Virus record (IMG/VR): IMGVR_UViG_3300048011_000525
Coordinates: 1-64,000 of that record
Length of the DNA: 64,000 nucleotides
Reading direction: 5' to 3' (one strand)
DNA from: a virus
Both the position numbers and the translations under genes were made by a program. The notes beneath the pieces are model-generated. The model ran no database searches and had not been told where the DNA came from. It saw only the letters and a list, made by a program, of their open reading frames with translations. Below are positions 1 to 61,626 of this stretch, piece by piece (position 1 is the stretch's first letter; every line of letters starts with the position of its first letter).

Positions 1-480
1 ATACACTATATAGAGCAAGAGTATGCGTATAGGCCCCGCTATAGTGATCAACAGCTAAGGCCCCGCTGTAAGGATAGTAAACAGCACACACCTAAGCATT
101 CTAATAAACGTAGATGAACTATATACTAGCATGATCACACTAGAAACTAGCACTACACGGATAAGCACATACTACCAAGGCAGTATGAGAGTTCCTTGCT
201 ATACTGTATACGAGAATGATCGTATAGTGATCCAAACCACACACAAGCCCACGGCATACACTATATATGAGGGGTTGAAATCTAAGGTGAAAAGTATTTG
301 AACTATGCCTCTCGCGACCTCAGTCAATCTTTTTTGAATACTGTATAAAATTACACTAAACCGTCTTAAACTGTAATAATATTACACGGCGAACCTGGCT
401 TTACGGCCGATTCCGCCATGTTGCTAGACACCGTAAACGCATGGTAAAGCCACAGTTCGGCCGCCACCAGCGGCCTCTAG

Positions 481-712
481 TCACTCGCTATATAGTTCAC
501 ATGACTCTCTTATCACTACACTATATAGAGAGCTGCCCCTATCACTACTATATACTCTATCACTGAGCTTTACTACACTATATAGAGTGTCACTAAGGTT
601 GTCACTATATAGTCTATCACTACCATCACTATATAGTGTCACTATTGGCTTACTGTCACTGTCACTATATACTCTGTCACTAAGGTTGTCACTGTTGAAT
701 TGGTCACTACAC
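481..712. repeat. Low-complexity iterated block (CACTATATA and GTCACT units; TGTCACTAAGGTTGTCACT twice)
   Basis: CACTATATA at 519, 576, 603, 627, 663 (also 4 and 259); 19-nt direct repeat at 588-606 and 675-693. Confidence 0.8.
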
Positions 713-770
713 TCATTTTTTGGATTTGTCAAATTTTTCTCGTCCAAAATCCAAGTGTTTTTTGGTGGGA

Positions 771-927
771 TAACCTATTGAAATCATTGAGAAAAATTCT
801 CCTTTAAAATCAAGAGGTTAGGTGGGGCCCCGGCTGTAAATCCTAAGTCATTGATCTTATTGGAGTTTTTGGTGTGAACCTGGGGAGGAACTGTTCTTTT
901 GCTCATTCGAACTGTAACCTCTTGATA
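771..927. promoter_or_regulatory. Cluster of IHF-like sites (WATCAANNNNTTR)
   Basis: Perfect matches at 808-820 (+) and 915-927 (-); one-mismatch copies at 844-856 (-) and 771-783 (-). Confidence 0.55.
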
Positions 928-1006
928 GTATTGAGGTTTCTAATTCTTTCCTCTCTAGTGCAAAAGAACGGTTGACAAGTGGGGAGAAAGACTGTATAAT
1001 AGCAGC

Positions 1007-1100
1007 CGAGGTTGAGGCATATAGAACCTTCGCCCATCGGGAGTGTTTGTCTTCTACTTGGGGAATTCAGTAGCCCTAACCCTCTTTGCCCTTATTGTTC
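1007..1100 (+). ncRNA. Candidate non-coding transcript complementary to early-gene leaders
   Basis: Promoter at 972-1000 has no ORF before 1252; the transcript contains GCCCTAACCCTCTTTGCCCTTATTGTT. Confidence 0.35.
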
Positions 1101-1104
1101 TTAT

Positions 1105-1133
1105 AGTATACCTTCACTCTAGTCAGAAGTCAA
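1105..1133 (-). promoter_or_regulatory. Leftward sigma70 promoter with no credible downstream ORF
   Basis: Reverse complement reads AAAGAGG-TTGACT-17nt-TATACT, the same cassette as the rightward early promoters. Confidence 0.75.
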
Positions 1134-1251
1134 CCTCTTTTTAGCCAAAATCTTATTTTATTTTTGTGGGTATTTTGGAGAGAAAAAGGTTGACAACAGC
1201 CGGAAATGAGGTTATACTGTATACAGTTAAACAATAAAGAGAGGGCTTAAT

Positions 1252-1491
1252 ATGTACGGAATGTTCACTAAAGAAGGAAATGAATTGGTCGCAAGGATCG
1301 CAGCAGCCGGTGAGAAACTCGCAGCACAAGATGGCGCAGCCAGTGCCTGGGGTTTTTGCTTGCGAAAGTTGGAGACTCTCAGCTATGGCGAAGGCTTTGG
1401 TGAGGCCACTGACACTGATGTGAGAGAGCGAGTCTACGGTGATGTGGTTGCAGCCGCAGATGACACTTGCGATTTTTATCTAGCTCATTGA
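1252..1491 (+). CDS. Hypothetical early protein
   Basis: 79 aa ORF with own promoter and GAGGGC leader. Confidence 0.8.
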   Translation: MYGMFTKEGNELVARIAAAGEKLAAQDGAASAWGFCLRKLETLSYGEGFGEATDTDVRERVYGDVVAAADDTCDFYLAH

Positions 1492-1570
1492 GCAGAAAAA
1501 GGTTGACAGCAGCCGGATTAGATGGTATACTGTATATAACAGTTAGGGCAATATGTGGAGGGCACAGCCG

Positions 1571-1912
1571 ATGAATTTTGTAATTTCAACTCAAGTATTA
1601 GAGAACTATGGCGCTCATTGTGAGGACGGCAAGTTCAGCAGCCAGAACCATTATTGGAAGATGAAGGGCGGCATGGACTATCTGGTCAAGGACCTGGACC
1701 GTGTGCAAGATGCGGTGGCGTTCGTAGCAGCCGCGTTTTCGGACAACAGCCTGGGGTATAAAGAGTTCCCCATCGAGTGGCAGACCGAAGAGGAATGGAT
1801 TGCTAAACTGCCGGACGATGCAGACTATCGTGACTTCCTCAAAGAGCAAGTTTGGGTGGTTAGCCCTAAGACGGGGCGAAAGCACACCAAAGGTTATCCG
1901 GAGGAGTTTTAA
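1571..1912 (+). CDS. Hypothetical early protein
   Basis: Start moved to the ATG after GGAGGGCA; own promoter. Confidence 0.8.
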   Translation: MNFVISTQVLENYGAHCEDGKFSSQNHYWKMKGGMDYLVKDLDRVQDAVAFVAAAFSDNSLGYKEFPIEWQTEEEWIAKLPDDADYRDFLKEQVWVVSPKTGRKHTKGYPEEF

Positions 1913-1913
1913 T

Positions 1914-2090
1914 ATGAATACCTGTTCACACTGTAAGTCAGAGGTTGAGAACAACGCTCTTCGTTGTCCTTACTGCCTAGAGAATCCATATGATAATTTC
2001 GCATTTGAAACTGGTGGAACCTTTTCAACCATACTGGAATGGATACTCGGAACAGCCGTGGTATTGGTTATCCTGGCTTGGATATTTTGA
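1914..2090 (+). CDS. Small zinc-ribbon membrane protein
   Basis: CxxC-x10-CxxC plus hydrophobic C-terminus; GGAGGAG RBS before ATG 1914. Confidence 0.75.
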   Translation: MNTCSHCKSEVENNALRCPYCLENPYDNFAFETGGTFSTILEWILGTAVVLVILAWIF

Positions 2091-2163
2091 GCAAAAAGAG
2101 GTTGACATCTCCTTAAAAGATGCTATTATATAAGAGTAAGTTAAACAAAGCGAGGGCAATAAG

Positions 2164-2373
2164 ATGGCAAATTCAAGAGACGTAGCACTAGAGTTGGTAG
2201 ACAACGGTTTGGTAACAGCCGAGGCGATGCTGACTATGTGCCTAAAGTATATGTCAACAGACGATGTTGAGGATATGCTTGACTGTAATGAGTTGAGCGA
2301 ACGGTTTATGGAAGACGATGACGGGCAGCCGACTTGGGAACAAGAGTGGGCAGACTTTGGGGAGGAATACTAA
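2164..2373 (+). CDS. Small acidic early protein
   Basis: 69 aa; promoter and GAGGGCA leader. Confidence 0.8.
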   Translation: MANSRDVALELVDNGLVTAEAMLTMCLKYMSTDDVEDMLDCNELSERFMEDDDGQPTWEQEWADFGEEY

Positions 2374-2374
2374 G

Positions 2375-2965
2375 ATGCCAAATTGGTGCAATAACAATAT
2401 CACGATTCAGGGATCAACTGAAACTATCAAAACACTTTGGGAAGAGGCTACAGCCGAAGATGGTGGACTGCTATCAGCAATGGTTCCTATGCCCAAGGCT
2501 CTAGAAGGAACTACATCACCTACACCACAAGAAGGTGCCAGCAACTACGAAGGTGAACAGCCGATAGTAGATGGCTACGACAATTGGTATGATTGGTCGG
2601 TGGCCCGATGGGGAACCAAGTGGGATGTATCCACAGAAGGACTAGAGTTTACGGACAACGGAGACGGCACAGCCTCGATCAGTGGTTGGTTCGACAGTGC
2701 ATGGGCTCCACCACTTACTGCATACGAAACATTCTGCGAAAGCATGGACGGTGTCTACATTGAAGCGAGTTATCACGAAGGTGGTATGGACTTCGGTGGC
2801 TTCTGGGATAGCGAGACCGGTGAAGAGCATATGGACGGCATCCAAGAGACTTGGGAACAGTATAAAGACAACCTCGACGATGCTCCTAGTCTGTTCAAAC
2901 GCATAGACGAAGAATACGGTCTATCCGATCAATACGCTGAATGGGAAGAAATGGAAATGGAATAA
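2375..2965 (+). CDS. DUF1281/YubB (Api92)-like protein
   Basis: MPNWCNN start, WGTKW and FDSAWAPP motifs; GGAGG RBS. Confidence 0.75.
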   Translation: MPNWCNNNITIQGSTETIKTLWEEATAEDGGLLSAMVPMPKALEGTTSPTPQEGASNYEGEQPIVDGYDNWYDWSVARWGTKWDVSTEGLEFTDNGDGTASISGWFDSAWAPPLTAYETFCESMDGVYIEASYHEGGMDFGGFWDSETGEEHMDGIQETWEQYKDNLDDAPSLFKRIDEEYGLSDQYAEWEEMEME

Positions 2966-3032
2966 AAGAGGTTGACAAGGATGTCTTCCTATGCTATAGT
3001 ATAAACACAATAAGAGATTAGGAGGGCATCCA

Positions 3033-3314
3033 ATGTCAACAGATTTAAGAAACGTTCCAGACTGTGTAGCACAGAACGAATTGACTCAGACACGCTTTTG
3101 GGGTGGCAAGGATCGATTGACTTGCATACAGATCACTCAACGCAAACCCAAGTATGATCCAGACAACGGCGGAGCAATGTTTAACCATATACAGTTGACC
3201 AAGCATCAAGCTCGTATGTTGGCAACAGAATTGATGTTGTTTGCAGAGGGCCGCGAAGTAGAAGAGTTGGCTGAGTTGGATGATGCAACATTTGGTGAAG
3301 AGGAGCCAGCGTAA
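3033..3314 (+). CDS. Hypothetical early protein
   Basis: Promoter and GAGGGCA leader. Confidence 0.8.
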   Translation: MSTDLRNVPDCVAQNELTQTRFWGGKDRLTCIQITQRKPKYDPDNGGAMFNHIQLTKHQARMLATELMLFAEGREVEELAELDDATFGEEEPA

Positions 3315-3514
3315 TGAGACGATCCTATCGTATATACGGAATCAAGGACGGTGGCAAGGAAGAGTTTGTCACTTCAGTATCCGCAGCAGCCGACGGCAAA
3401 GCTGCACACCAGGCAATGAAGCTGCAAGGCTACTTCGATCGCATCGTTTGTCGTGATGTGCTAGGTGGCTTGCGTTTTGAATATAATTTAAAAACTGGTA
3501 GAAAATTGGCATAA
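3314..3514 (+). CDS. Hypothetical early protein
   Basis: TAATG coupling to the upstream gene; GAGGAG RBS. Confidence 0.75.
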   Translation: MRRSYRIYGIKDGGKEEFVTSVSAAADGKAAHQAMKLQGYFDRIVCRDVLGGLRFEYNLKTGRKLA

Positions 3515-3586
3515 AAGAGGTTGACAACTGAGCACTTCGGTGCTATTATATAAGAGTAAGTTAACAAAGCTAGAAGGGCAAACAAA

Positions 3587-4051
3587 ATGGCAACACGTTC
3601 AAACATCGCATACAAAACAGCAGAAGGCAAAATCCGCAGCGTCTACAGCCACTGGGATGGCTATGTAGCAAACAATGGTCGCATCCTAGAGGAGAGCTAC
3701 CAGGACCAAGCAAAGATTGAAGCATTGGTTGCACTAGGTAGCATCAGCAGCCTGGGAGCAGAACTAGGCGAGCAGCAGGACTTCAACGATCGCAGCACAC
3801 AACAAGACGATTGGACACTAGCATATCATCGTGACCGTGGTGAAGATTTGGTTGTTAGCGAATACGACGACATTCCAAGTTGGATCAACGACATGGAGGA
3901 ATACGCTTACCTGTGGAACGGCAAGGAATGGCTTGTAAACGATCACGGTGCTAAGGACGCAAACGGCTTTCCTGTGTTCGACTTGCTGTCAACTGTAGTG
4001 CCAATCGAACTAGCACGTATGGAGCAGCGCATCGCAGCAGCCGCAAATTAA
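3587..4051 (+). CDS. Conserved-type phage hypothetical protein
   Basis: MxTRS...YxHWDGY motif; own promoter. Confidence 0.8.
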   Translation: MATRSNIAYKTAEGKIRSVYSHWDGYVANNGRILEESYQDQAKIEALVALGSISSLGAELGEQQDFNDRSTQQDDWTLAYHRDRGEDLVVSEYDDIPSWINDMEEYAYLWNGKEWLVNDHGAKDANGFPVFDLLSTVVPIELARMEQRIAAAAN

Positions 4052-4135
4052 TTTGGTATTTTGGCAAATTAGGGGTTGACAGCAGCCCCTAATGAGGCTA
4101 TACTATATATAACAGTTAGGAAAGAGGGCAAACAA

Positions 4136-4324
4136 ATGAAACAGACAATTGGTTTTATCTTAATCGTAGTAGGAATGATGGTAGCAGCCGGTAGTGCTGG
4201 GGACTGTGACGGACAGTGTATGGAATACGCTAACAGCCTGAGCGAGATGCTTATGATCGCAGCAGCCGGAATTTTTGCTATGGTAGTAGGTGCGTTGGCA
4301 GTTTTTTCTGCACAAAATGATTAA
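4136..4324 (+). CDS. Small two-TM membrane protein
   Basis: ATG after GAGGGCA; two hydrophobic segments flanking CDGQC. Confidence 0.75.
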   Translation: MKQTIGFILIVVGMMVAAGSAGDCDGQCMEYANSLSEMLMIAAAGIFAMVVGALAVFSAQND

Positions 4325-4395
4325 TTAGGGGTTGACAAACTCCGCAGTAGATGGTATACTGTATATAACAGTTAAACAATTGAGAGGCAAATAAC

Positions 4396-4713
4396 ATGAC
4401 ACAGAAAACTTTTGAAGTAGCAGGTACATCAACACTAAATGGCGTGACTAAGGTAAGGTTCGCAAATGACTATGTAGGTCGTTTCAAGATCCTTGTTAAG
4501 AACGGACACGAGAACATTGAGTTGATGGAACTAGGTGAGAAGATGACCAAGGCAGACATCTGCAAGGTATTGATTGCTCATCCAAACTTCCAAGGTGAAG
4601 ATCAGCAGAGTGCGATCGCAGAATTTGTTGTACGAAATGTGAAGGCGCAGCCGGAGCAGACAGAAACAACAAAGGTGGAAGCAGCCGAAGACGTCGAAGC
4701 AGAATTGGCGTAG
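4396..4713 (+). CDS. Hypothetical early protein
   Basis: 105 aa; own promoter; GAGGCA leader. Confidence 0.8.
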   Translation: MTQKTFEVAGTSTLNGVTKVRFANDYVGRFKILVKNGHENIELMELGEKMTKADICKVLIAHPNFQGEDQQSAIAEFVVRNVKAQPEQTETTKVEAAEDVEAELA

Positions 4714-4816
4714 GCACTTCCACAACCAGGGCGTCCTTGTGTAGCAGCCGGGACACTCCAATAGAGAGCGGTGGGGCTCATTGGACACATTATTGCAGCA
4801 GCCAGAGGATCGGGCA

Positions 4817-4945
4817 TTGGAACTAAATGAAATCATCGCAGTCGTAGGGATTGCATTCACATCATTCATGGCGGGGTATCTACTTTCAGAGATGCATTCA
4901 TTCCGCAAGTATATCAAAGAAAATTGTTTGAAGGAGACTTCATAA
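4817..4945 (+). CDS. Small single-TM protein (42 aa, not in ORF track)
   Basis: TTG start after AGAGGA; MELNEIIAVVGIAFTSFMAGYLL... Confidence 0.45.
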   Translation: MELNEIIAVVGIAFTSFMAGYLLSEMHSFRKYIKENCLKETS

Positions 4946-4952
4946 AGACTTA

Positions 4953-5029
4953 GGGCCTTTAGCTCAATTGGTTAGAGCACCGGACTCATAATCCGTAGGT
5001 TCCGAGTTCGAGTCTCGGAGGGCCCACCA
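4953..5029 (+). tRNA. tRNA with CAT anticodon, most likely tRNA-Ile2 (lysidine type)
   Basis: GGGCCTT/AGGGCCC acceptor stem, CTCATAA loop, TTCGAGT T-loop, encoded CCA; not initiator-like. Confidence 0.9.
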
Positions 5030-5034
5030 AGTAA

Positions 5035-5111
5035 CTGCCCTTAGCTCAGCAGGATAGAGCAAGAGATTTCTAATCTCTAGGTCGGGGGTTCGAATCCCTC
5101 AGGGCAGGCCA
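5035..5111 (+). tRNA. tRNA-Arg(TCT)
   Basis: CTGCCCT/AGGGCAG acceptor stem, AGAGA-TTTCTAA-TCTCT arm, CCA. Confidence 0.95.
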
Positions 5112-5115
5112 ATTA

Positions 5116-5199
5116 GCCTCCGTGGTGGAATAGGTAGACACAAGGGACTTAAAATCCCTCGCTTATGGCGTCCCGGTTCGAGTCCGGGCGGAGGCACCA
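5116..5199 (+). tRNA. tRNA-Leu(TAA)
   Basis: GCCTCCG/CGGAGGC acceptor stem, AGGGA-CTTAAAA-TCCCT arm, long variable arm, CCA. Confidence 0.95.
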
Positions 5200-5200
5200 A

Positions 5201-5300
5201 GTTTAGGGAGTTGAGCAGCCGAACGAGCCGCCCTCACTCAAAGGTACCGCAGCGTATGCCCTCACGCTAAGGAACGCTCCTCCCTAAGCCCTTTGGGCAG
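5201..5300 (+). ncRNA. Candidate structured sRNA with GCCCUC (anti-leader) loops
   Basis: Closing stem 5201-5210/5280-5289; inner hairpins TTGAG/CTCAA and AGCGT-ATGCCCTC-ACGCT. Confidence 0.6.
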
Positions 5301-5334
5301 CAGCCGAGGTTCCAGAACCATCAGGCATCAGTTT

Positions 5335-5364
5335 ATTATAACACAGAGCAGCCGGGGTTGTCAA
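5335..5364 (-). promoter_or_regulatory. Leftward sigma70 promoter, antisense to the sRNA/tRNA cluster
   Basis: Reverse complement TTTAGG-TTGACA-18nt-TATAAT. Confidence 0.7.
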
Positions 5365-5473
5365 CCTAAAAATAACCAAAATAAAATTAAAAAATGGCAA
5401 ATAAAAGGTTGACAGTAACAGCAAACGAGGCTATACTGTATACAGTTAAACAATAAAGCAAAGAGGGCAAACT

Positions 5474-5812
5474 ATGCTTACAATTACTAAAACTGGTTTT
5501 GAACAGAACGACGACTACACTAGCACTTTTTACGGTGTAGAAGGCGCGGTGACGCTTGCTGGCGACAGCTTATGGGGTGACACTGCGGGGCGAGTTGTTA
5601 ACGTTGAAGGCATTACTGTAACAGAAGAACAGTACGGTGAAGAGGCTGACGACAAGTACATGCACGTGACAGTGACACACGACAGCACGTGGGACATTTA
5701 CACTGACACTGCGTTTGCTGTAGCAATTAGCGAAGCGTTGGGCATGGACATTGACTTTACGGAGCAAGGCATGCAAGACGACGGACACGCGAGCATGGAA
5801 GTGTACAGTTAA
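5474..5812 (+). CDS. Hypothetical acidic early protein
   Basis: Promoter and GAGGGCA leader. Confidence 0.8.
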   Translation: MLTITKTGFEQNDDYTSTFYGVEGAVTLAGDSLWGDTAGRVVNVEGITVTEEQYGEEADDKYMHVTVTHDSTWDIYTDTAFAVAISEALGMDIDFTEQGMQDDGHASMEVYS

Positions 5813-5900
5813 AAAAGTGGCAAAAAAGAGGTTGACAACGGCCTCTTTGTTTGCTATACTGTATATAACAGTTAGGGCAATAAGTAGAAGGAACTACGCA

Positions 5901-6095
5901 ATGATCAAAGTATTCAACAGCGCATACCGTGAGTCGATCGAGCAGCCGAAGATGATTCCACTGGATGAAGTCAACATCGTAACACAGAACATCCACAACG
6001 GCGCTCCTTACATCTTGTTCGAGCACAAAGACTATCCGCTGGGCGCACTGAGCGCAACCTTCGACGGTGAGTATTGGGCTTGTGACCTTGATTGA
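5901..6095 (+). CDS. Hypothetical early protein
   Basis: ATG at 5901 after AAGGA; promoter at 5832. Confidence 0.7.
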   Translation: MIKVFNSAYRESIEQPKMIPLDEVNIVTQNIHNGAPYILFEHKDYPLGALSATFDGEYWACDLD

Positions 6096-6187
6096 TGATC
6101 CGTGTGATGATTGGTACCCATTAGGGGTTGACAAACCAAAGAAGTGACTGTATACTGTAAGTATAACAATTAGGAAAGAGGGCAAAC

Positions 6188-6457
6188 ATGGAAAAATCAA
6201 TTTACGAAGTAGGTGAACAGCACAAACAACTAGCAGCCGTTGGTAGACGCATGATGGACATGAGCGAGTATGCCAATTGCAAGGGCATGAAGGATGAAGA
6301 CTTCAAATTGCTCAACGACATGAGTCACGTAGGCAACCTGCTTACCAAATTGGGCAATGCGTTTGGTCCTAAGCTGGACAAAGACTTTACAGCCGAGGAT
6401 ATGGATTTAATTGCTCGTTTTATGAAAAAAGAGATTGACATTCCGCAGATGCGGTAG
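6188..6457 (+). CDS. Hypothetical early protein
   Basis: Promoter and GAGGGCA leader. Confidence 0.8.
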   Translation: MEKSIYEVGEQHKQLAAVGRRMMDMSEYANCKGMKDEDFKLLNDMSHVGNLLTKLGNAFGPKLDKDFTAEDMDLIARFMKKEIDIPQMR

Positions 6458-6495
6458 TATACTGTATATAACAATTAGGGCAAAGGGCAAAACAA

Positions 6496-6633
6496 ATGAT
6501 TAAAACACTAGGTTGGTTAACAGTAATTGGAATAGGTCTTTACACAGGGATCCTACAGGCCATGTTGATATTTGCTGGTGCTGCGGTTATTTGGGTTGGT
6601 ACTTTGCTCGCTAGTTTGGGAGGCGCGATATGA
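6496..6633 (+). CDS. Small hydrophobic membrane protein (45 aa, not in ORF track)
   Basis: Promoter at 6435, AGGGCA twice in the leader, MIKTLGWLTVIGIGL...; stop overlaps the next ATG. Confidence 0.7.
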   Translation: MIKTLGWLTVIGIGLYTGILQAMLIFAGAAVIWVGTLLASLGGAI

Positions 6634-6863
6634 AATGGGTTTTGATAGCAAGCGTTCTTAACTGGCAACCAGTATATGACGATCAGAAGACCTGTCAACT
6701 AGCAGCCGAAGAGCTCAAGAAGGTATATTACCAAGAAGTCGCTGCGTGTATTCCAAAGCCGACTAACACAGCCGGTGAGAATGAGAATGTGGACCGCATG
6801 TTCGAACAGTTCATGAATATGGTAAAAGAACTACAAAAAGAAGTTGACAACGGCAACAACTGA
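6630..6863 (+). CDS. Hypothetical protein
   Basis: ATGA overlap; GGAGG RBS. Confidence 0.75.
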   Translation: MKWVLIASVLNWQPVYDDQKTCQLAAEELKKVYYQEVAACIPKPTNTAGENENVDRMFEQFMNMVKELQKEVDNGNN

Positions 6864-6907
6864 ACGTATACTACATATATAAATTAACTTAACGCTGTGA
6901 GGGCACA

Positions 6908-7912
6908 ATGACAAACATTACAATCAAAGAAGGCACATACAAAATCCGTGGTAAAGACGTAGACCTATCAGGTATGACTTTTCCACTAGTAGAAGAATTC
7001 AAAGTAGGAGCACGAGGTGGCTACGTAACAGTAGACGGTTCAGCAGTTGCTGGCTTTCCACAGCGTAACATCAAGATCATGTGCGCAAGTGCAGATGACT
7101 ATGCCCAAACTGATGCTGCAATTAATACAGCAGCAGTAGAGGAGAGTGACGAAGAAGTTATCGAACGTATCCGTGAACGCTTTGACATGTTGAAGGACAT
7201 GACCAAAGCAGTCAAGAAAGGTGCTGTGCGAGCTATGATCGTTTCAGGACCTCCAGGTGTTGGTAAGTCGCATGGTGTAGAAGAAGTACTAGAGCGTTAC
7301 GACACACTAGAACATCTAGGTGGTTCCTCTAAGTATACAATTGTTAAAGGTGCAATGAGCCCAATCGGACTCTACTGTAAGCTGTTCAACTACGCAGACA
7401 AAGACAACGTTATCGTGTTCGATGACTGTGATGCGATCTTCGAAGAGCCACTTGCACTTAATATTTTAAAAGCTGCTCTAGACAGCAAGAAGAAACGTAC
7501 TATTCACTGGAACACAGACAGTTTCAAGTTGCGTAATGAAGGTGTGCCGGATTCATTCGAGTTCAAAGGTTCAGCGATCTTTATTACCAACCTTGACTTC
7601 CATGACGTAAAGAGCAAGAAGATACGCTCGCACTTGGAAGCACTAGAGTCACGTTGTCACTATATGGATTTAACTATCCACTCTGAGCGCGACAAGATGC
7701 TCAGAATTGCACAAGTCATCAAGGACGGAATGCTAGATAGTTATAAGGTGTCCGATGAAGTCAAAGAAGAAATCATTGATTTCGTGGACATTAATAAGAA
7801 GCGACTAAGAGAACTGTCATTGCGTACAGTACTTAAGGTAGCCGACTTAGCAGTTGCATTTCCAGATCGTTGGGAAGCAATGGCTGAGAACACTGTTATG
7901 AAACATTCTTAA
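6908..7912 (+). CDS. AAA+ family ATPase
   Basis: Walker A GPPGVGKS, Walker B VIVFDD, sensor ITN, ALESR arginine finger. Confidence 0.85.
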   Translation: MTNITIKEGTYKIRGKDVDLSGMTFPLVEEFKVGARGGYVTVDGSAVAGFPQRNIKIMCASADDYAQTDAAINTAAVEESDEEVIERIRERFDMLKDMTKAVKKGAVRAMIVSGPPGVGKSHGVEEVLERYDTLEHLGGSSKYTIVKGAMSPIGLYCKLFNYADKDNVIVFDDCDAIFEEPLALNILKAALDSKKKRTIHWNTDSFKLRNEGVPDSFEFKGSAIFITNLDFHDVKSKKIRSHLEALESRCHYMDLTIHSERDKMLRIAQVIKDGMLDSYKVSDEVKEEIIDFVDINKKRLRELSLRTVLKVADLAVAFPDRWEAMAENTVMKHS

Positions 7913-8034
7913 TGCCCTCAAGAATCATAACAGTTCAAGTGTTAAGCAGGCACCCCTCATAGCCCTCACGCTCTGCTAACACATGCGCCCGGAGTAGGAC
8001 ATGCCCTCGTCCAATACACTCCGGGCTTTTTTTT
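7892..8034 (+). ncRNA. Candidate 3-prime-UTR sRNA: three hairpins with GCCCUC loops ending in an intrinsic terminator
   Basis: Stems 7892-7934, 7939-7982, 7987-8026 followed by T8; GCCCTC at 7914, 7962, 8003. Confidence 0.65.
7987..8034 (+). terminator. Rho-independent terminator
   Basis: GCCCGGAGT...ACTCCGGGC followed by T8. Confidence 0.85.
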
Positions 8035-8120
8035 GATCTTTTTTTGATTTAGGGGTTGACACAGCCGCCATTTGATTATAAGCTGTATATAACAGTTAAC
8101 AAAGCAAGAGGGCAAAAGCA

Positions 8121-8513
8121 ATGACAACTGTAATTAAAGAGAACTTCCGCAAGTGTTCAGTAGAGGGATGCAACAAGCTGGGCCAGCACATGGGCAAGTA
8201 TCGCAAAGACGGATCACCTGTACGCAGAGCCAAGTGTGCCAAACATCATTCAATTGACTACGGCATGAAAGGTTGGGACTACAAGCAACACCGCAAAGAC
8301 TACTGTGAGAACCGTGACGGACGCTTGGGCTTCACCTGCACATCAACTATTGTAGATCCAGAGTGGCAACTAGACGCAGATCACATCAACGGCAACCCAA
8401 GCGACAATCGTCCTGAGAACATACAGACACTGTGCAAGTGCTGTCACCCAATCAAAACTAAAATGGAAGGTGATTACCTAACAGCCGGTCGCAAAGCATA
8501 CGGGGTAAAATAA
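8121..8513 (+). CDS. HNH endonuclease-like zinc protein
   Basis: DHINGNPSDNRPENIQTLCKCCH. Confidence 0.8.
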   Translation: MTTVIKENFRKCSVEGCNKLGQHMGKYRKDGSPVRRAKCAKHHSIDYGMKGWDYKQHRKDYCENRDGRLGFTCTSTIVDPEWQLDADHINGNPSDNRPENIQTLCKCCHPIKTKMEGDYLTAGRKAYGVK

Positions 8514-8599
8514 TTACGCAATTTGGTAAAAAAGAGGTTGACAACCGGCCTCTTTTTTTATATACTGTATATAACAGTTAAGCAAATGAGGGCAAACAA

Positions 8600-8971
8600 A
8601 TGCTAGTAACTAAACACACCGAGGAAAGCACACACAAGTTTTTTGCAATAGCAGACATTGAAGCTCGTGCTCGTGCAGCGTACAATGCAAACAAGCAGCT
8701 ATTTGAAAGTGCTGCACACCAGCAGCGTGTAGAACTTGTAGACACTATACTACGCAACATGCTCGCGGGCTACACTACAGCATATCAAACTGCTCGCGCT
8801 GCTACTAAACGCAAAGCAGCACACACAGAAGTCAAGTACGACCGCGTAATACAATACACAAGCAACAAGCACAAGCAGCTACGTGCAGCAGCCGTTGAGC
8901 AACTAGCAGCACTTGGACTTGACTTAGTATACAAACCCAAAACAAACAGCTATAGCGTACACGTACTATAG
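8600..8971 (+). CDS. Hypothetical basic early protein
   Basis: Promoter and GAGGGCA leader. Confidence 0.8.
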   Translation: MLVTKHTEESTHKFFAIADIEARARAAYNANKQLFESAAHQQRVELVDTILRNMLAGYTTAYQTARAATKRKAAHTEVKYDRVIQYTSNKHKQLRAAAVEQLAALGLDLVYKPKTNSYSVHVL

Positions 8972-9071
8972 CAGCCGCGGCCTGTGGATAACTTTTTGGT
9001 AAAAAAGAGGTTGACAAACACACACTCAGATCATATACTGTATGTATAAGTTAAAGCAAAGAGGGCACAAT

Positions 9072-9332
9072 ATGAAACGCAACATTAGAGCAGCATACAC
9101 AAAACTAAAAGCACTTGGTGCTCCCGTGTATGAAGGTGGTTGGAATGGTGAAGACACATTCCGAATCTCAGGAGAGGACAACGGCGACACCCTTTGGGCA
9201 GACTACTATGAAGAGTTTGTGCCCAGCACATGGGAGTTTGGTGTTAATCCTATTATCACTAAGGTACTGGACAAGCATGGCTTGTTTGCAGAATGGTGCA
9301 ATGCTGGTGTGCTTAATGTATATGAGAATTGA
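9072..9332 (+). CDS. Hypothetical early protein
   Basis: ATG at 9072 after GAGGGCA. Confidence 0.8.
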   Translation: MKRNIRAAYTKLKALGAPVYEGGWNGEDTFRISGEDNGDTLWADYYEEFVPSTWEFGVNPIITKVLDKHGLFAEWCNAGVLNVYEN

Positions 9333-9403
9333 GCAAATAAAGGTTGACACACAGCACACAGATGCTATACTGTATATATAAATTAACGTAGAGGGCTAAA
9401 CAA

Positions 9404-9799
9404 ATGAACAACGAAACACTTACTCCAAACGCACTAGCAGAACGTTACACTGTAGAAGACCTACAGGCAATGCTCAACACTGCTGAGCAAGCGGCACGAA
9501 CTGCACAACATGACTTCCTAGAGCAGTGGAACACTAGCACAGGTGGTAACCAATATGGTGAGCCAATGTACTGTGGCTTTGCTTGGGTTAACATACACGG
9601 TGTTAAAGGCAATACTAAGATTGGTAGACGCTTGAAGTTGGCAGGTGTACAGCAGAGCTGGGACAAGAGCTTCCAAGTATGGAACCCAGGTTCACACGGT
9701 GGACAGAGCATGGATGTTAAAGAAGCAGGTGCTAGAGCATATGCAGATGTATTAACAGCATACGGCTTTAGAGCTTACCCAGGTAGCAGAGCAGACTAA
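9404..9799 (+). CDS. Conserved-type phage hypothetical protein
   Basis: CGFAWV and QSMDVKEAGARAYA motifs; promoter and GAGGGC leader. Confidence 0.8.
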   Translation: MNNETLTPNALAERYTVEDLQAMLNTAEQAARTAQHDFLEQWNTSTGGNQYGEPMYCGFAWVNIHGVKGNTKIGRRLKLAGVQQSWDKSFQVWNPGSHGGQSMDVKEAGARAYADVLTAYGFRAYPGSRAD

Positions 9800-9832
9800 T
9801 ACAGCAGGCTAGGCTGATGGGAGGCAAAAGAT

Positions 9833-9946
9833 ATGGATTTAATTAAAGTGTTGGCTTTTGTAGGGATTGGTTTGGCTATCGGCCAGATATATGTGCATTT
9901 TGCACTAAGGGAATTCTGGAAAGACCATAATGGTGACGACAAATAA
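9833..9946 (+). CDS. Small single-TM protein (37 aa, not in ORF track)
   Basis: GGGAGG RBS; MDLIKVLAFVGIGLAIGQIYV... Confidence 0.6.
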   Translation: MDLIKVLAFVGIGLAIGQIYVHFALREFWKDHNGDDK

Positions 9947-9967
9947 GAAGAACTGTGTGTGGGAAAA

Positions 9968-9996
9968 GATCCTTGCGTGATGCAGGGATTTTTTTT
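9968..9996 (+). terminator. Intrinsic terminator closing the early module
   Basis: ATCCTTGC-GTGAT-GCAGGGAT followed by a T run. Confidence 0.75.
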
Positions 9997-10118
9997 GAAT
10001 TTTTTTTATTTTCGAGACCGGGGGGTCGGGGCTTATAAACACTAGTAAAATCAACAACTTACAAGTCCTTAATGACCGTTTTTTAAAACCATGGTCTAGA
10101 AATCACCACCTCACTTCT

Positions 10119-20734: not shown

Positions 20735-20853
20735 TTGTAAATAAAAGGATCCCGTTTACTAAGTTCTTCTAAACGCTTTTTTAATTCTTTCTTTTCTTTG
20801 TAACGTGCATAAGGTGTCTTTAACCATTCCCAAAATCTTTTTATGTAAACCAT
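20731..20853 (-). CDS. Small basic protein (40 aa, not in ORF track)
   Basis: MVYIKRFWEW...RDPFIYK; overlaps both neighbours. Confidence 0.6.
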   Translation of the reverse strand: MVYIKRFWEWLKTPYARYKEKKELKKRLEELSKRDPFIYK

Positions 20854-21842
20854 TTTTTTGCTCTCAGTCTAATTTTAAGTGGACTATCGTCTGCACTAAT
20901 AGCAATGCTATGCAGAGTATATAGTCTACCGTTACGTTGTACACTATCACCTATATCGTTAATGTCATCTGCCCAATCAGGCATGCTAACACTGTAACCT
21001 AGTTCTATTGCACGTTCGACAAGTTTCTTACCCGCCTTATCTCTATCAGGTACAACAATAATTTGTTTCTGTAGTCTATTTAACAACATTGCTTGTTGGT
21101 CACTAATTTCTGATCCGCCCAATGCACAACCTTCTATGTGTATAGCATCTATTTGTCCTTCGCACAAGACGGCAAATAGCTTCGTGTAGCGTTGTTCGTC
21201 TAGTCCGTATACGTAACCCGGCTGTACTTCTGTTAGGTACTTGGGCTTCTTGTCTGCTTGCACACTACGCCCTGTCCAGCCTACGATACGTCCTTCGTAG
21301 TAGAACGGAATAATAAGTCTATCACGGTACCCTAGGCTAGGGCTCCAGTAGTAGTCTGTGTCGTCTAAGTTTAAATGACGATCTGCCATATACTGTATCA
21401 CAGCAAGGAAGTGTTTAAAGCCTACGTTGTTCTCGTTGTAGTCGGGTATGTCTACTATTCGAACAGCATCGTCTGGCAACGGAACAGTATTAAACGTTGG
21501 CAGCGTTGCAATGCGTGATTGAGCTTCAACGCCTTCATTTTCTCTCATAACCTCAAGTGCCACCTTATTGATTACATCGTCAGGTGCTCCCATCCACTGG
21601 AGAAGTTTACGCAGCTTGTGACTAAAGTTCCTGCCCGGTTGCCAGGATGCCTTGAAGCCGCAGTTAAAACAATGATAACTTACGCCTCCATCTGGGTTGC
21701 TTATTAAGCCACCACGTCCGCGAGTGTCTGCACTGTTGCCATTGTGATGACAGCAAGGTGCATTGAAACTTAGCCAACCACTAGGAGTTGTCTTCCGCTT
21801 AGCCGGCAAGTATGTCAGAACTGTATCGTTTACTACACTCAT
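20841..21842 (-). CDS. gp61: DNA primase (T4 gp61 type)
   Basis: Zn finger HCFNC; TOPRIM EGQID and PDRD. Confidence 0.88.
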   Translation of the reverse strand: MSVVNDTVLTYLPAKRKTTPSGWLSFNAPCCHHNGNSADTRGRGGLISNPDGGVSYHCFNCGFKASWQPGRNFSHKLRKLLQWMGAPDDVINKVALEVMRENEGVEAQSRIATLPTFNTVPLPDDAVRIVDIPDYNENNVGFKHFLAVIQYMADRHLNLDDTDYYWSPSLGYRDRLIIPFYYEGRIVGWTGRSVQADKKPKYLTEVQPGYVYGLDEQRYTKLFAVLCEGQIDAIHIEGCALGGSEISDQQAMLLNRLQKQIIVVPDRDKAGKKLVERAIELGYSVSMPDWADDINDIGDSVQRNGRLYTLHSIAISADDSPLKIRLRAKKWFT

Positions 21843-21884
21843 ACTATTATTATAGCGTAGTTAGTAAAGTTTGTCAAGCAGTTT

Positions 21885-22010
21885 TTAGTAGATTAATCCG
21901 TATGCTATACACCAAAGCTCTAAACCTACCTTGTATATAAGATAGTATAGAATTGGAGACATTATAAGTAGTCCAGGCCAAAAGAAAGGCTGTTTTGTTA
22001 AGTTTTTCAT
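21885..22010 (-). CDS. Small hydrophobic protein (41 aa, not in ORF track)
   Basis: MKNLTKQPFFWPGLLIM..., directly after the receptor gene. Confidence 0.45.
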   Translation of the reverse strand: MKNLTKQPFFWPGLLIMSPILYYLIYKVGLELWCIAYGLIY

Positions 22011-22012
22011 AT

Positions 22013-23749
22013 TTAAAAATATACTTTGAAACCAGTTTTCCAGTTACGCCCTAATTGACTATAACCGTTTGGTCTCTGGTATTCCTTATTACTAATGTTA
22101 TATATCCCTGCAAACACTTCTAAGTTATTTTTTTTATAATTTAATTCTGTATTATAAATTACTATAGGATCTATATTCATTGTTTCAAATGTTATACTAT
22201 TAATATCTTTGTGCTTGCCATAGTAGTCTGCGTCAAAAGAATACACAATGTTGTCTACTATTGTTGCTAGTTTTAAATTATTAGTAACTTTAGGACGTCT
22301 TAGTTTTTGATTACCATTTGATGTCTTAGCATCTATAACAGCAACATTATTTTCTATAAAGAACTGTCCTATTTCATAGTTAAGTGTATTTTCAATACCT
22401 TTAGTGTAACTTGTATTGTTGTCGTTAATATATGTGCCATTATATACTATAGCATTTTGTTCTTGTGTTACAAACAAAGCCGTGTTTGAAAAGTTATTTT
22501 CGTAACCTATTTCATAACTTATAGTATCTTCTTCTAATAGATTAGGGTTACCTGTAAAGCCGTAATTGTCCTGTCCGTACATTTCGTATAGTGTTGGAAT
22601 TCTATATCCTGTTGATACACTAGCTCGCACACCGTTATTAAAGATACCTATTCTTCCTGTATTCTTTTCTCCGAATTCGTTTATGATATCATGTCTTATA
22701 CCATATGCTAGTGCAGTGTTGCCGATTATAGTATTTGAATTTATAAAAATACCTTTAGTTGTTCTCTTCTTGTCTACACTGCTTGTATAAGGAAACGCAC
22801 TATTAATGTTTATTAAAAAGTCTGCACTAACCTTTTCAACTTCAGTGCCAATAATTACATCAGTATTATTATAATTTAATTTATGCGATCCGTAGAAGGT
22901 GTCTACTGTACTATCATAGTCGCCTTCTAATTTAAAATCTTTTGTGTACACTCTATTATGATTAGAATTATTATACGTTAGTCTACTTTTTTCATTTGTA
23001 TAATCTAACTGTATGTTTTGCCAATTCCACTTGCCTGTATAATTTAATGTATCTGTTGTTGAGTCTAGTGCAGAATAATTTGTTTCGTTTATATAATTAA
23101 CCCGTATGTTATTATGATCGTCACTGTGTACTAAATTTAAATTTATGTTATCGTAATCATGGGGGTCTTTTTCTTCGCCATTTGGATAAACACTTATGCC
23201 GTCAGTTTGAAAAGACTCGATACTAACAGTATAGTTTAAGGTTGGAGATATCTGTCCTGATAGTTGTGCTTCTGCTGTAAGTAAATTATTACTACCCACA
23301 GTTGAGGAAATATACGATCTACCTGTAATATCAGATACTAAGTTAATTACACCTCCAGATGCATTAGCACCGTATGAACTGCTCATAGGACCTTTGTATA
23401 GTTCTATATTACTAATACCTGTAAAGTTATGTTGACCAATATCGTCAGTGCCAGTAGGGCTACTTTGATCTTTGATTGAAATGCCATTGAGTGTTATAAG
23501 GCTCTGATCGCTATCTGCTCCTCTAATATACAAAGAGCTCATTTGTCCTTTTGGTCCACTAGATAATATATCCACACTAGACACTTCGTTGAGTTCGTCT
23601 GTTTCTATAATTTCATAAGAGTACGTCGAGTTTGCAAAATACGACGGTGTCCTATCGGCATATACATAAATTACTAGCTCTGTAGCAAATGTTGAGGTCG
23701 CAAAAAAAGCCGCGAAAAACGCGACTAATAGTTTATTATAATTATTCAT
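22013..23749 (-). CDS. TonB-dependent outer-membrane receptor (BtuB-like)
   Basis: Signal peptide, plug IRG, IELYKGPMSSSYGANASGGVINLV, GNPNLLEE, C-terminal GR..KTGFKVYF. Confidence 0.88.
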   Translation of the reverse strand: MNNYNKLLVAFFAAFFATSTFATELVIYVYADRTPSYFANSTYSYEIIETDELNEVSSVDILSSGPKGQMSSLYIRGADSDQSLITLNGISIKDQSSPTGTDDIGQHNFTGISNIELYKGPMSSSYGANASGGVINLVSDITGRSYISSTVGSNNLLTAEAQLSGQISPTLNYTVSIESFQTDGISVYPNGEEKDPHDYDNINLNLVHSDDHNNIRVNYINETNYSALDSTTDTLNYTGKWNWQNIQLDYTNEKSRLTYNNSNHNRVYTKDFKLEGDYDSTVDTFYGSHKLNYNNTDVIIGTEVEKVSADFLININSAFPYTSSVDKKRTTKGIFINSNTIIGNTALAYGIRHDIINEFGEKNTGRIGIFNNGVRASVSTGYRIPTLYEMYGQDNYGFTGNPNLLEEDTISYEIGYENNFSNTALFVTQEQNAIVYNGTYINDNNTSYTKGIENTLNYEIGQFFIENNVAVIDAKTSNGNQKLRRPKVTNNLKLATIVDNIVYSFDADYYGKHKDINSITFETMNIDPIVIYNTELNYKKNNLEVFAGIYNISNKEYQRPNGYSQLGRNWKTGFKVYF

Positions 23750-23785
23750 ACGCTTATTATAGCGTAATTTTATTAGTCTGTCAAC

Positions 23786-61164: not shown

Positions 61165-61602
61165 ATGAACAAGATAGTTTGCAGTGGTGCTCTCTTTTAC
61201 GCACTCAATACAAAACGTTTTTTATTTTTACACAGAGCTGGCGGCAAGACTTCTGGCACTTGGGGACTTGTAGGTGGCGGCAACGAAGAAGGTGAAACAC
61301 CTTTTGAAGGACTTACACGTGAAATACAAGAAGAAGTAGGAAAACTACCTAAGTTTGTAAAAACAATACCTTTAGAAACGTTTGTATCAAATGATGAAAA
61401 GTTTAACTTTCACACATACCTTGTTGTAATAAAAGAAGAATTTTTACCTACACTAAATCATGAACACAACGGGTATGCTTGGACTACATTTGGTAATTGG
61501 CCTAAAACCCTACACCAGGGATTGCGCAACACACTACAAAATAAAACTAATCTTACAAAGTTAGAAACTGTATTTCAAGTAATAGACTTACTTGACAATT
61601 AA
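61165..61602 (+). CDS. NUDIX hydrolase
   Basis: GG..E.GE......REIQEEVG. Confidence 0.88.
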   Translation: MNKIVCSGALFYALNTKRFLFLHRAGGKTSGTWGLVGGGNEEGETPFEGLTREIQEEVGKLPKFVKTIPLETFVSNDEKFNFHTYLVVIKEEFLPTLNHEHNGYAWTTFGNWPKTLHQGLRNTLQNKTNLTKLETVFQVIDLLDN

Positions 61603-61626
61603 CTCAAAAGACTGTATAATATGAGT

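Follow-up and report, generated by a model that had tools for sequence, protein, structure and literature searches.

We analysed the left 64 kb (positions 1 to 64,000; hereafter the window) of the 115.6-kb contig IMGVR_UViG_3300048011_000525 from IMG/VR, which has 38% G+C and comes from an uncultured myovirus. Its tail sheath protein shares ~42% identity with those of Pseudomonas phage PA5oct, Agrobacterium phage Atu_ph07 and Rak2-type giant phages, contigs related to this phage reach 260-357 kb, and the sequencing runs that contain the stretch originated from seawater, estuary and river samples. Close to its left end, the window carries an early module of promoter cassettes, small genes, tRNAs and structured RNAs (Table 1). 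Within this module, the short sequence GAGGGC, usually followed by A and hereafter called the tag, precedes the first genes behind early promoters, and its complement, GCCCUC, can occupy the hairpin loops of two RNAs, one lying 3' of a tRNA cluster (element 1) and the other after a gene for an AAA ATPase (element 2).

The initial annotation of the window had listed GAGGGC on the plus strand at 1241, 1558, 2152, 3022, 4124, 5463, 6178, 6899, 8108, 8588, 9061 and 9391, the variants AGGGCA (1545, 3575, 5874, 6477 and 6484) and GAGGCA (4384 and 9821), and the complement GCCCTC at 5230, 5258, 7914, 7962 and 8003. All of these were found in the sequence, together with two more plus-strand copies of GAGGGC at 3246 (coding) and 5018 (tRNA-Met); the five GCCCTC sites are the only ones on the plus strand of the window and lie in two stretches free of open reading frames (ORFs). 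All 19 GAGGGC/GCCCTC sites of the window, 14 sense and 5 complement, fall inside 1241-9396 (8.2 kb). Shuffles of the whole window contained 8.8 +/- 2.9 sites, and 0 out of 100 reached 19. The remaining 51 kb of the contig added one copy per strand. Avoidance of the two words in the rest of the genome was considered and found to be unsupported, with one copy per strand against 1.6-2.7 expected under higher-order models.

Twelve of the 14 sense copies are located 8-13 nt upstream of the ATG of a promoter-proximal gene, and AGGGCA or GAGAGGCA variants are present in four further cassettes. Early genes that are internal and translationally coupled (starts 1914, 2375, 3314 and 6630) have GGAGG(A) instead of the tag. 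Thus, the assignment of the tag to early genes holds for promoter-proximal genes and was too broad for internal ones. When we checked ORFs outside the early module, as the initial annotation had suggested, GAGGGC was upstream of 0 out of 90; these ORFs had AGGA (40), AAGG (24), GGAG (22) or AGGAG (16) upstream or stood directly behind a TATAAT-like box, in agreement with the claim that other genes use ordinary AGGAG sites or no leader. In several later genes (20841-23770 on the minus strand; 61600-61623), the start codon comes right after a TATAAT(A)-like box and there is hardly any leader, as at the ATGs 21842, 23749 and 61621; this suggests T4-late-type promoters and near-leaderless messages.

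The tags belong to repeated cassettes. The module has 17 near-consensus sigma-70 promoters, most of which consist of GGTTGACA, 17 nt and TATACT. GTATATAACAGTTA and a short, A-rich leader come next, and the leaders of the promoter-proximal genes are ~26 nt long. The cassette order is an A-rich stretch, a stem-loop over the -35 box (for example, 5825-5848), the promoter, a ribosome site and the ATG. The closest match is the PeSL of T4-type phages, described as a mobile unit of a stem-loop, a near-consensus sigma-70 promoter, a ribosome site and a start codon before small early genes (PMC2839356, PMC4122927). The unit order is the same, and all elements of the definition in PMC4122927 (repeated stem-loop, sigma-70 promoter, ribosome site and ATG before early ORFs) are present here in 17 copies. 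When IMG/VR was scanned for exact pattern matches, the promoter word turned up in more than 118 viral stretches, and dozens of these have the same ACAGTTAGG...GAGGGCAA leader.

Two side observations concern these promoters. An inverted repeat, CTGTATATAACAG or CTGTATACAG, covers the -10 box and predicted start in most cassettes (for example, 5434-5450) and is found in many unrelated IMG/VR contigs; it is operator-like, with half-sites resembling those of the LexA box (CTGT/ACAG) at a spacing of 5 or 2 nt instead of 8. The first promoter (12/12 matches, 972-1000) has no downstream ORF. Its predicted ~145-nt transcript, closed by GAGGUUGA/UCAACCUC and a U-run, would be antisense to an inverted cassette (minus-strand promoter 1133-1105) and expose CCCUAACCCUCUUUGCCCUUA, a complement of leaders of the AAGGGCAA and AGAGGG types. 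The fold of this ORF-less RNA (1001-1150) had a z-score that was not significant against shuffles.

The GCCCUC motifs lie in structured RNA. Element 2 comprises three hairpins at and beyond the ATPase stop codon, each with GCCCUC in its loop (fold z-score, -3.7), and folding indicated that all five motifs of the window can sit in hairpin loops, as the initial annotation had stated; the sequence that it described as shared between the two elements is GCCCTCACGCT, at 5258 and 7962. No Rfam family other than tRNA matched 5200-5300 or 7890-8040 at E <= 1. A near-identity DNA search of positions 1-10000 against cultured phages returned a tRNA match only, cultured homologues of the ATPase (T4 NrdC.10 type, PA5oct) were at most 47% identical, and a cultured phage with this RNA was not found. 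Two PA5oct RNAs defined by RNA-seq, ncRNA001 and ncRNA002, were set aside as counterparts, as GCCCUC-type loops were not seen in them.

Element 1 has two further features. Its 3' arm contains GCUCCUCCC (5279-5288), kept in four contigs (this one, L102, L033 and L045) and here paired in the closing stem; this sequence equals 8 out of 9 nt of the motif of bacterial cuckoo RNAs and is complementary to GGAGGAG, the ribosome site of internal early genes. A sigma-70 promoter that matches the consensus at 12/12 positions and is extended by TG (5364-5335, minus strand) points leftward with no ORF downstream; its predicted transcript would be antisense to element 1 and the tRNAs and would contain GAGGGC instead of GCCCUC. 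This promoter is kept in the closest relative, L033, and not in L102 or L045; the fold of the element 1 antisense had no significant z-score.

Table 1. Features of the early module, with coordinates in the window.
Feature	Coordinates	Strand	Details
Early module	970..9996	+	17 sigma-70-type promoter cassettes, ~21 small genes, 3 tRNAs, 2 structured RNAs; closed by strong terminator 9962-9996
Cassette	1190..1254	+	GAGGGC tag 1241, ATG 1252
Cassette, two tags	1503..1573	+	AGGGCA 1545, GAGGGCA 1558, ATG 1571; homologue starts MNFVI in relatives
Cassette	2102..2166	+	GAGGGCA 2152, ATG 2164
Cassette	2972..3035	+	GGAGGGCA 3021, ATG 3033
Cassette, variant tag	3521..3589	+	AAGGGCA 3574, ATG 3587
Cassette	4076..4138	+	GAGGGCA 4124, ATG 4136
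Cassette, degenerate tag	4332..4398	+	GAGAGGCA 4382, ATG 4396
tRNA-Met, tRNA-Arg, tRNA-Leu cluster	4953..5199	+	Upstream of element 1
Element 1, structured RNA	5201..5289	+	2 nt past tRNA-Leu; 10-bp closing stem around two GCCCUC loops (5230, 5258)
Cassette	5409..5476	+	GAGGGCA 5463, ATG 5474
Cassette, upstream tag	5832..5903	+	AGGGCA 5874, 27 nt from ATG 5901, outside ribosome-site distance
Cassette	6128..6190	+	GAGGGCA 6178, ATG 6188
Cassette, two tags	6435..6498	+	AGGGCA 6477 and 6484, ATG 6496
Cassette of AAA ATPase gene	6844..6910	+	GUGAGGGCA 6897, ATG 6908
AAA ATPase, T4 NrdC.10-like (distant homologue)	6908..7912	+	334 aa; 3' end and 3' untranslated region bear hairpin RNA
Element 2, hairpin 1	7905..7925	+	Spans stop codon 7910-7912; loop AAUGCCCUC (GCCCUC at 7914)
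Element 2, hairpin 2	7939..7981	+	Large loop with CCCCUC and GCCCUC (7962)
Element 2, hairpin 3 (intrinsic terminator)	7987..8033	+	7987-8025 plus U8; inner stem GGAC/GUCC, loop AUGCCCUC (8003)
Cassette	8056..8123	+	GAGGGCA 8108, ATG 8121
Cassette	8538..8602	+	GAGGGCA 8588, ATG 8600
Cassette	9011..9074	+	GAGGGCA 9061, ATG 9072
Cassette	9344..9406	+	GAGGGCU 9391, ATG 9404

A protein-guided scan of IMG/VR with the ATPase produced 80 loci at 57-91% identity. In 69 of the 80, the ATPase gene was followed by 1-5 GCCCUC hairpins, usually with a terminator at the end. Among 45 distinct sequences, 104 out of 109 GCCCUC motifs were in loops of the minimum-energy fold, and the mean unpaired probability was 0.87 at the motif and 0.33 at other positions. 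We then had 123 distinct motif instances, of which 70% lay within a stem of at least 4 bp, compared with 32% when the flanks were shuffled; stems of 8-15 bp surrounded around a quarter of the instances, compared with ~1% with shuffled flanks. The instances were enclosed by 62 different stem sequences, and their commonest loops were GUGCCCUC (35 instances), CCGCCCUCA (16) and AUGCCCUC (6).

Because a plain MAFFT alignment failed on the modules, which are not alignable by sequence (RNAalifold on 18 full elements recovered 4 pairs only), we assessed covariation in 58 hairpins aligned without gaps on the motif; row selection makes the motif invariant in this set but does not account for the covariation of the stems. 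The five loop-closing pairs were paired in 81% of cells, compared with 57% after shuffling and 27-40% when the partner was slid. Double-sided changes in the closing helix numbered 77 against 24 expected, a value reached in 0 out of 500 shuffles. Element 1 recurs 3' of a tRNA in at least three other contigs, and across contigs CGA/UCG replaces GAG/CUC in its inner stem while the CCGCCCUCA loop stays the same. Judged by this comparative evidence, the element after the NrdC.10-like ATPase gene is a real and conserved RNA family that is undescribed. Conservation of the loop motif and of the leader tag in relatives, on which the initial annotation had staked its proposal, was indeed found: ~70 related contigs keep both, with the loops held by covarying stems.

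The RNA and the tag also occur together across lineages. At RNA-bearing loci, 293 distinct promoter-proximal leaders had GAGGGC in 57%, [AG]AGGGC in 70% and AGGAG in 12% of cases, and the three bases after GAGG were GCA in 125 out of 217. In a sister clade of 10 loci (ATPase identity, 57-61%), the RNA is absent and an ORF directly follows the ATPase gene; the tag was found in 0 out of 48 leaders and AGGAG in 62%. A convincing analogous RNA with GCUCCU loops was not found within +/-4 kb in this clade, which uses AGGAGC. The intermediate lineage L176 (65% identity) has one GCCCUC and one GCCCCUC loop, with tagged leaders in 1 out of 5 cases.

In total, 310 leaders held 268 AGGGC boxes, compared with 5.6 expected from composition; 45 boxes were 17-39 nt before the ATG, and 26 leaders had two. 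As these 45 copies, more than 16 nt before the ATG, are too far upstream to be ribosome sites, the tag is not just a ribosome site. In lineage L141, AUAGGGCAAAC is near the 5' end of almost every leader. Upstream tags and those at the Shine-Dalgarno (SD) position have in common the element AGGGCA, to which UGCCCU in the loops is complementary, and the tag persists among relatives while leader spacers vary widely. The tag GAGGGCA is the exact complement of the loop consensus (GUGCCCUC, AUGCCCUC or CCGCCCUCA), the 5' U of the loop being present in 58% and the 3' A of the tag in 79% of cases. The initial annotation had described a "GGCA extension" as the address; a conserved complementary tag does exist, and its common core is AGGGCA:UGCCCU or GAGGGC:GCCCUC, not specifically GGCA. 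Simple duplex energies for the loop averaged -13 kcal/mol on the 16 promoter-proximal early start regions and -5 kcal/mol on 89 other genes. The canonical 16S tail reaches -7 kcal/mol on the early leaders, as expected from the established base pairing of the conserved 16S tail, whose CCUC matches GAGG and no other part of the tag.

RNA-library contigs from four libraries in three studies (marine and river) cover the ATPase 3' end and element 2 (7682-8036), which is weak evidence of expression. Contig depths were ~290-950 over the ATPase 3' end and the element and 12-36 for most upstream contigs, figures from libraries that may contain DNA and by which parts of the gene cannot be ranked. Neither the depth steps at ~7405 and ~7700 nor the uncovered parts of the metatranscriptome contigs were readable as RNA ends.

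Other repeats accompany the early module. AGCAGCCG has 18 copies on its plus strand (1001-8977) and none on the minus strand, and GCAGCCG is present 22 times in the module and once in the rest of the window. Copies fall within coding frames, inside the spacer of a promoter (1508), where a transcript is predicted to start (1001), and directly after stop codons or terminators. The word AGCAGCCG is common to the closest relative, L033/L119 (6 copies versus 1), and absent from most other relatives. It is contained in the universal 16S 530-loop sequence CAGCAGCCGCGG, with an 11-nt match at 8970 that may be a coincidence. Before the module, near the left end of the contig, CACTATATAG and GTCACTA are densely repeated at 480-720 in both direct and inverted orientation; these repeats may be iterons or a signal related to packaging or injection.

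Direct RNA-RNA pairing is the most economical explanation of the tag and the loops because two independently conserved motifs are exact complements, the loops are single-stranded, and the leaders are short and unstructured. We propose that AGGGCA, usually as GAGGGCA(A), serves as a private tag in the leader of each promoter-proximal early gene, at the SD position and sometimes again nearer the 5' end. Two stable, highly folded RNAs would arise from the early module, one as the 3' untranslated region (3'UTR) of the ATPase message (7905-8033) and one as a 3' fusion to the tRNA cluster (5201-5289), each predicted hairpin loop displaying (U)GCCCUC, to which the tag is exactly complementary. With the accumulation of these RNAs, the loops would pair with 6-8 nt of the tag, and pairing over the short leaders would exclude the 30S subunit and lower translation of the early set. 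The five loops on two RNAs could progressively silence ~16 tagged transcripts, the ATPase message included (tag at 6897), and later messages with AGGAG-type sites would escape. That multivalent anti-tag small RNAs (sRNAs) block early translation by direct pairing in this way has, in our estimate, an even chance of being right. The motifs, their positions, their display in loops, their conservation and the co-occurrence of RNA and tag were observed directly in the sequences, and pairing in the cell, repression as its outcome and a role in early shut-off are inferred from them.

Several points weigh against repression by pairing. The seed is only 6-8 nt, and the RNAs share early promoters with their targets, so the timing rests on an assumed difference in stability. 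The metatranscriptome contigs give no ends, strand or level, and the one with the highest depth extends past the terminator. Loop and leader flanks from the same contig fit each other no better than those from other contigs (16 contigs, P = 0.83), and at RNA-bearing loci the number of loops was not correlated with the fraction of tagged leaders (rho = -0.11). In L151 and L160, the ribosome site is GAGGGA with GCCCUC loops unchanged, AGGGCA being kept upstream, and the contrast between lineages with and without RNA and tag may reflect a single evolutionary event. The 16S tail of the phage's actual host may also differ from the canonical one. As a separate observation, the L151/L160 sub-lineage retains GUAGGGCAA near the leader 5' end.

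Taking these results together, the idea of the initial annotation that anti-SD sRNAs silence early genes has gained partial comparative support from the conserved motifs, the covarying loop stems, a sister clade without either partner and later genes without the tag; a loop and tag that change together within lineages are missing from it. The expected co-variation of loop and tag therefore stands as joint presence and absence, and fails as flank matching within lineages.

The same complementarity and conservation would be seen if loops and tags paired to a different end, such as nuclease shielding, stabilisation, activation or tethering, or if the leaders titrated an RNA aimed at host messages. 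Co-expression of the RNAs with their supposed targets fits protection or titration as well as it fits delayed shut-off. However, a duplex on the ribosome site of a 26-nt leader would hinder the 30S subunit by an established principle (RsaE, RNAIII and cuckoo-type anti-SD loops), and activation specifically is hard to reconcile with leaders that are A-rich, short and without an obvious inhibitory fold; we consider a different outcome of pairing unlikely. We hold it to be similarly improbable that proteins read the motifs, with the tag as the site of a RegB-like nuclease or a repressor, the array as a CsrB-like sponge or assembly platform, and the complementarity as incidental or a relic of an inverted cassette. 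The distant relative T4 does have such a protein-read early tag (PMC3014915, PMC1702504), multi-hairpin arrays with identical loops are a classic sponge design, and the inverted cassette at 1001-1145 would give an anti-leader RNA, showing how complements can arise. Yet a 7-nt exact complement of two independently conserved motifs is expected by chance at ~1 in 10^3 to 10^4, one protein could not read a motif plus its complement, and the early proteins tested matched no nuclease or RNA-binding family in Pfam or PHROGs.

The two motifs might also have no joint function, the tag being merely the ribosome site of a mobile PeSL-like cassette spread by recombination and the hairpins acting as 3' stabilisers and terminators. 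The PeSL-like cassette with stem-loops across the -35 box (PMC2839356, PMC4122927) is what this would predict, as is the failure to find within-lineage co-variation. The persistence of the tag despite widely differing spacers, the large excess of upstream copies away from the SD position and the joint absence of RNA and tag in the sister clade argue against it, as do loops that stay invariant while stems change, since stabiliser hairpins need no conserved loop; we regard such independence as quite improbable. That a DNA-binding factor or modification enzyme reads double-stranded GAGGGC in either orientation seems to us very improbable. It would explain why a single module contains this 6-bp site in both orientations; however, covarying stems place the motif in single-stranded loops, orientation strictly follows transcript sense, and position is fixed relative to the start codon.

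Repression by loop-tag pairing would resemble several known systems. In Staphylococcus aureus RNAIII and RsaE and in actinobacterial 6C, loop-exposed C-rich seeds pair with the G-rich ribosome sites of several messages, and such Gram-positive sRNAs target the canonical ribosome sites of host regulons. The predicted phage RNAs share with this anti-SD class an unpaired seed whose sequence complements the ribosome sites of multiple messages. By contrast, the phage tag extends past the part that pairs with 16S and is confined to phage genes of a single temporal class.

The closest architecture is that of the cuckoo/CcsR sRNAs of Alphaproteobacteria (RSs0680, SmelA075/A099), which have 2-4 hairpins, a C-rich anti-SD-like loop motif as the sole conserved sequence, compensatory stem changes and variable copy number (PMC4615179). 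A modular array of adjacent hairpins (1-5 per phage RNA, with 62 stems), a conserved C-rich loop and covarying stems are common to both. The phage loops, however, have GCCCUC and not CCUCCUCCC, the only copy of CUCCUCCC lies within the stem that closes element 1, and the Rfam search of both elements gave no hit to the ar14/CcsR type; by motif and model match, the phage RNAs fall outside this family. The phage RNA differs further in being linked to a 3'UTR or a tRNA and in its putative pairing with a non-canonical tag that early leaders of the phage itself carry.

For a tagged early regulon, the closest functional precedent is T4 RegB, which cuts GG*AGRAYARAA in early start regions and thereby inactivates many early messages, sparing most middle and all late ones (PMC3014915, PMC1702504). 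An extended ribosome-site motif marks early start regions in both phages; the reader in T4 is a protein nuclease helped by S1, and the candidate reader here is an RNA. No nuclease match in Pfam or PHROGs was found among the early proteins tested from the 115.6-kb contig. As for the PeSL, the available part of PMC4122927 describes an SD within the cassette and does not describe a complementary RNA. Our literature searches found no phage system that joins a private ribosome-site tag with complementary loop RNAs. The feature itself is undescribed, and the mechanism proposed for it is specific and testable.

Somewhat short of an even chance, in our view, is the wider proposal that a clade of marine giant-type T4 relatives uses a private, RNA-only ribosome-site code, in which the first gene of each early transcript is tagged and a multivalent 3'UTR- or tRNA-linked anti-tag RNA switches the regulon off or gathers its messages with no dedicated protein. 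Given the near-consensus sigma-70 promoters, the circuit can be tested in E. coli, and the tag/anti-tag pair could be used as a compact orthogonal translational switch. Among large lytic phages, T4 is known to achieve post-transcriptional early shut-off through the proteins RegB and RegA; if true, an RNA that reads a private ribosome-site tag would be a new solution and the RNA counterpart of these proteins. It would also explain why promoter-proximal early genes of the clade avoid canonical AGGAG, and would give a function to a widespread, unannotated RNA family of ocean viromes.

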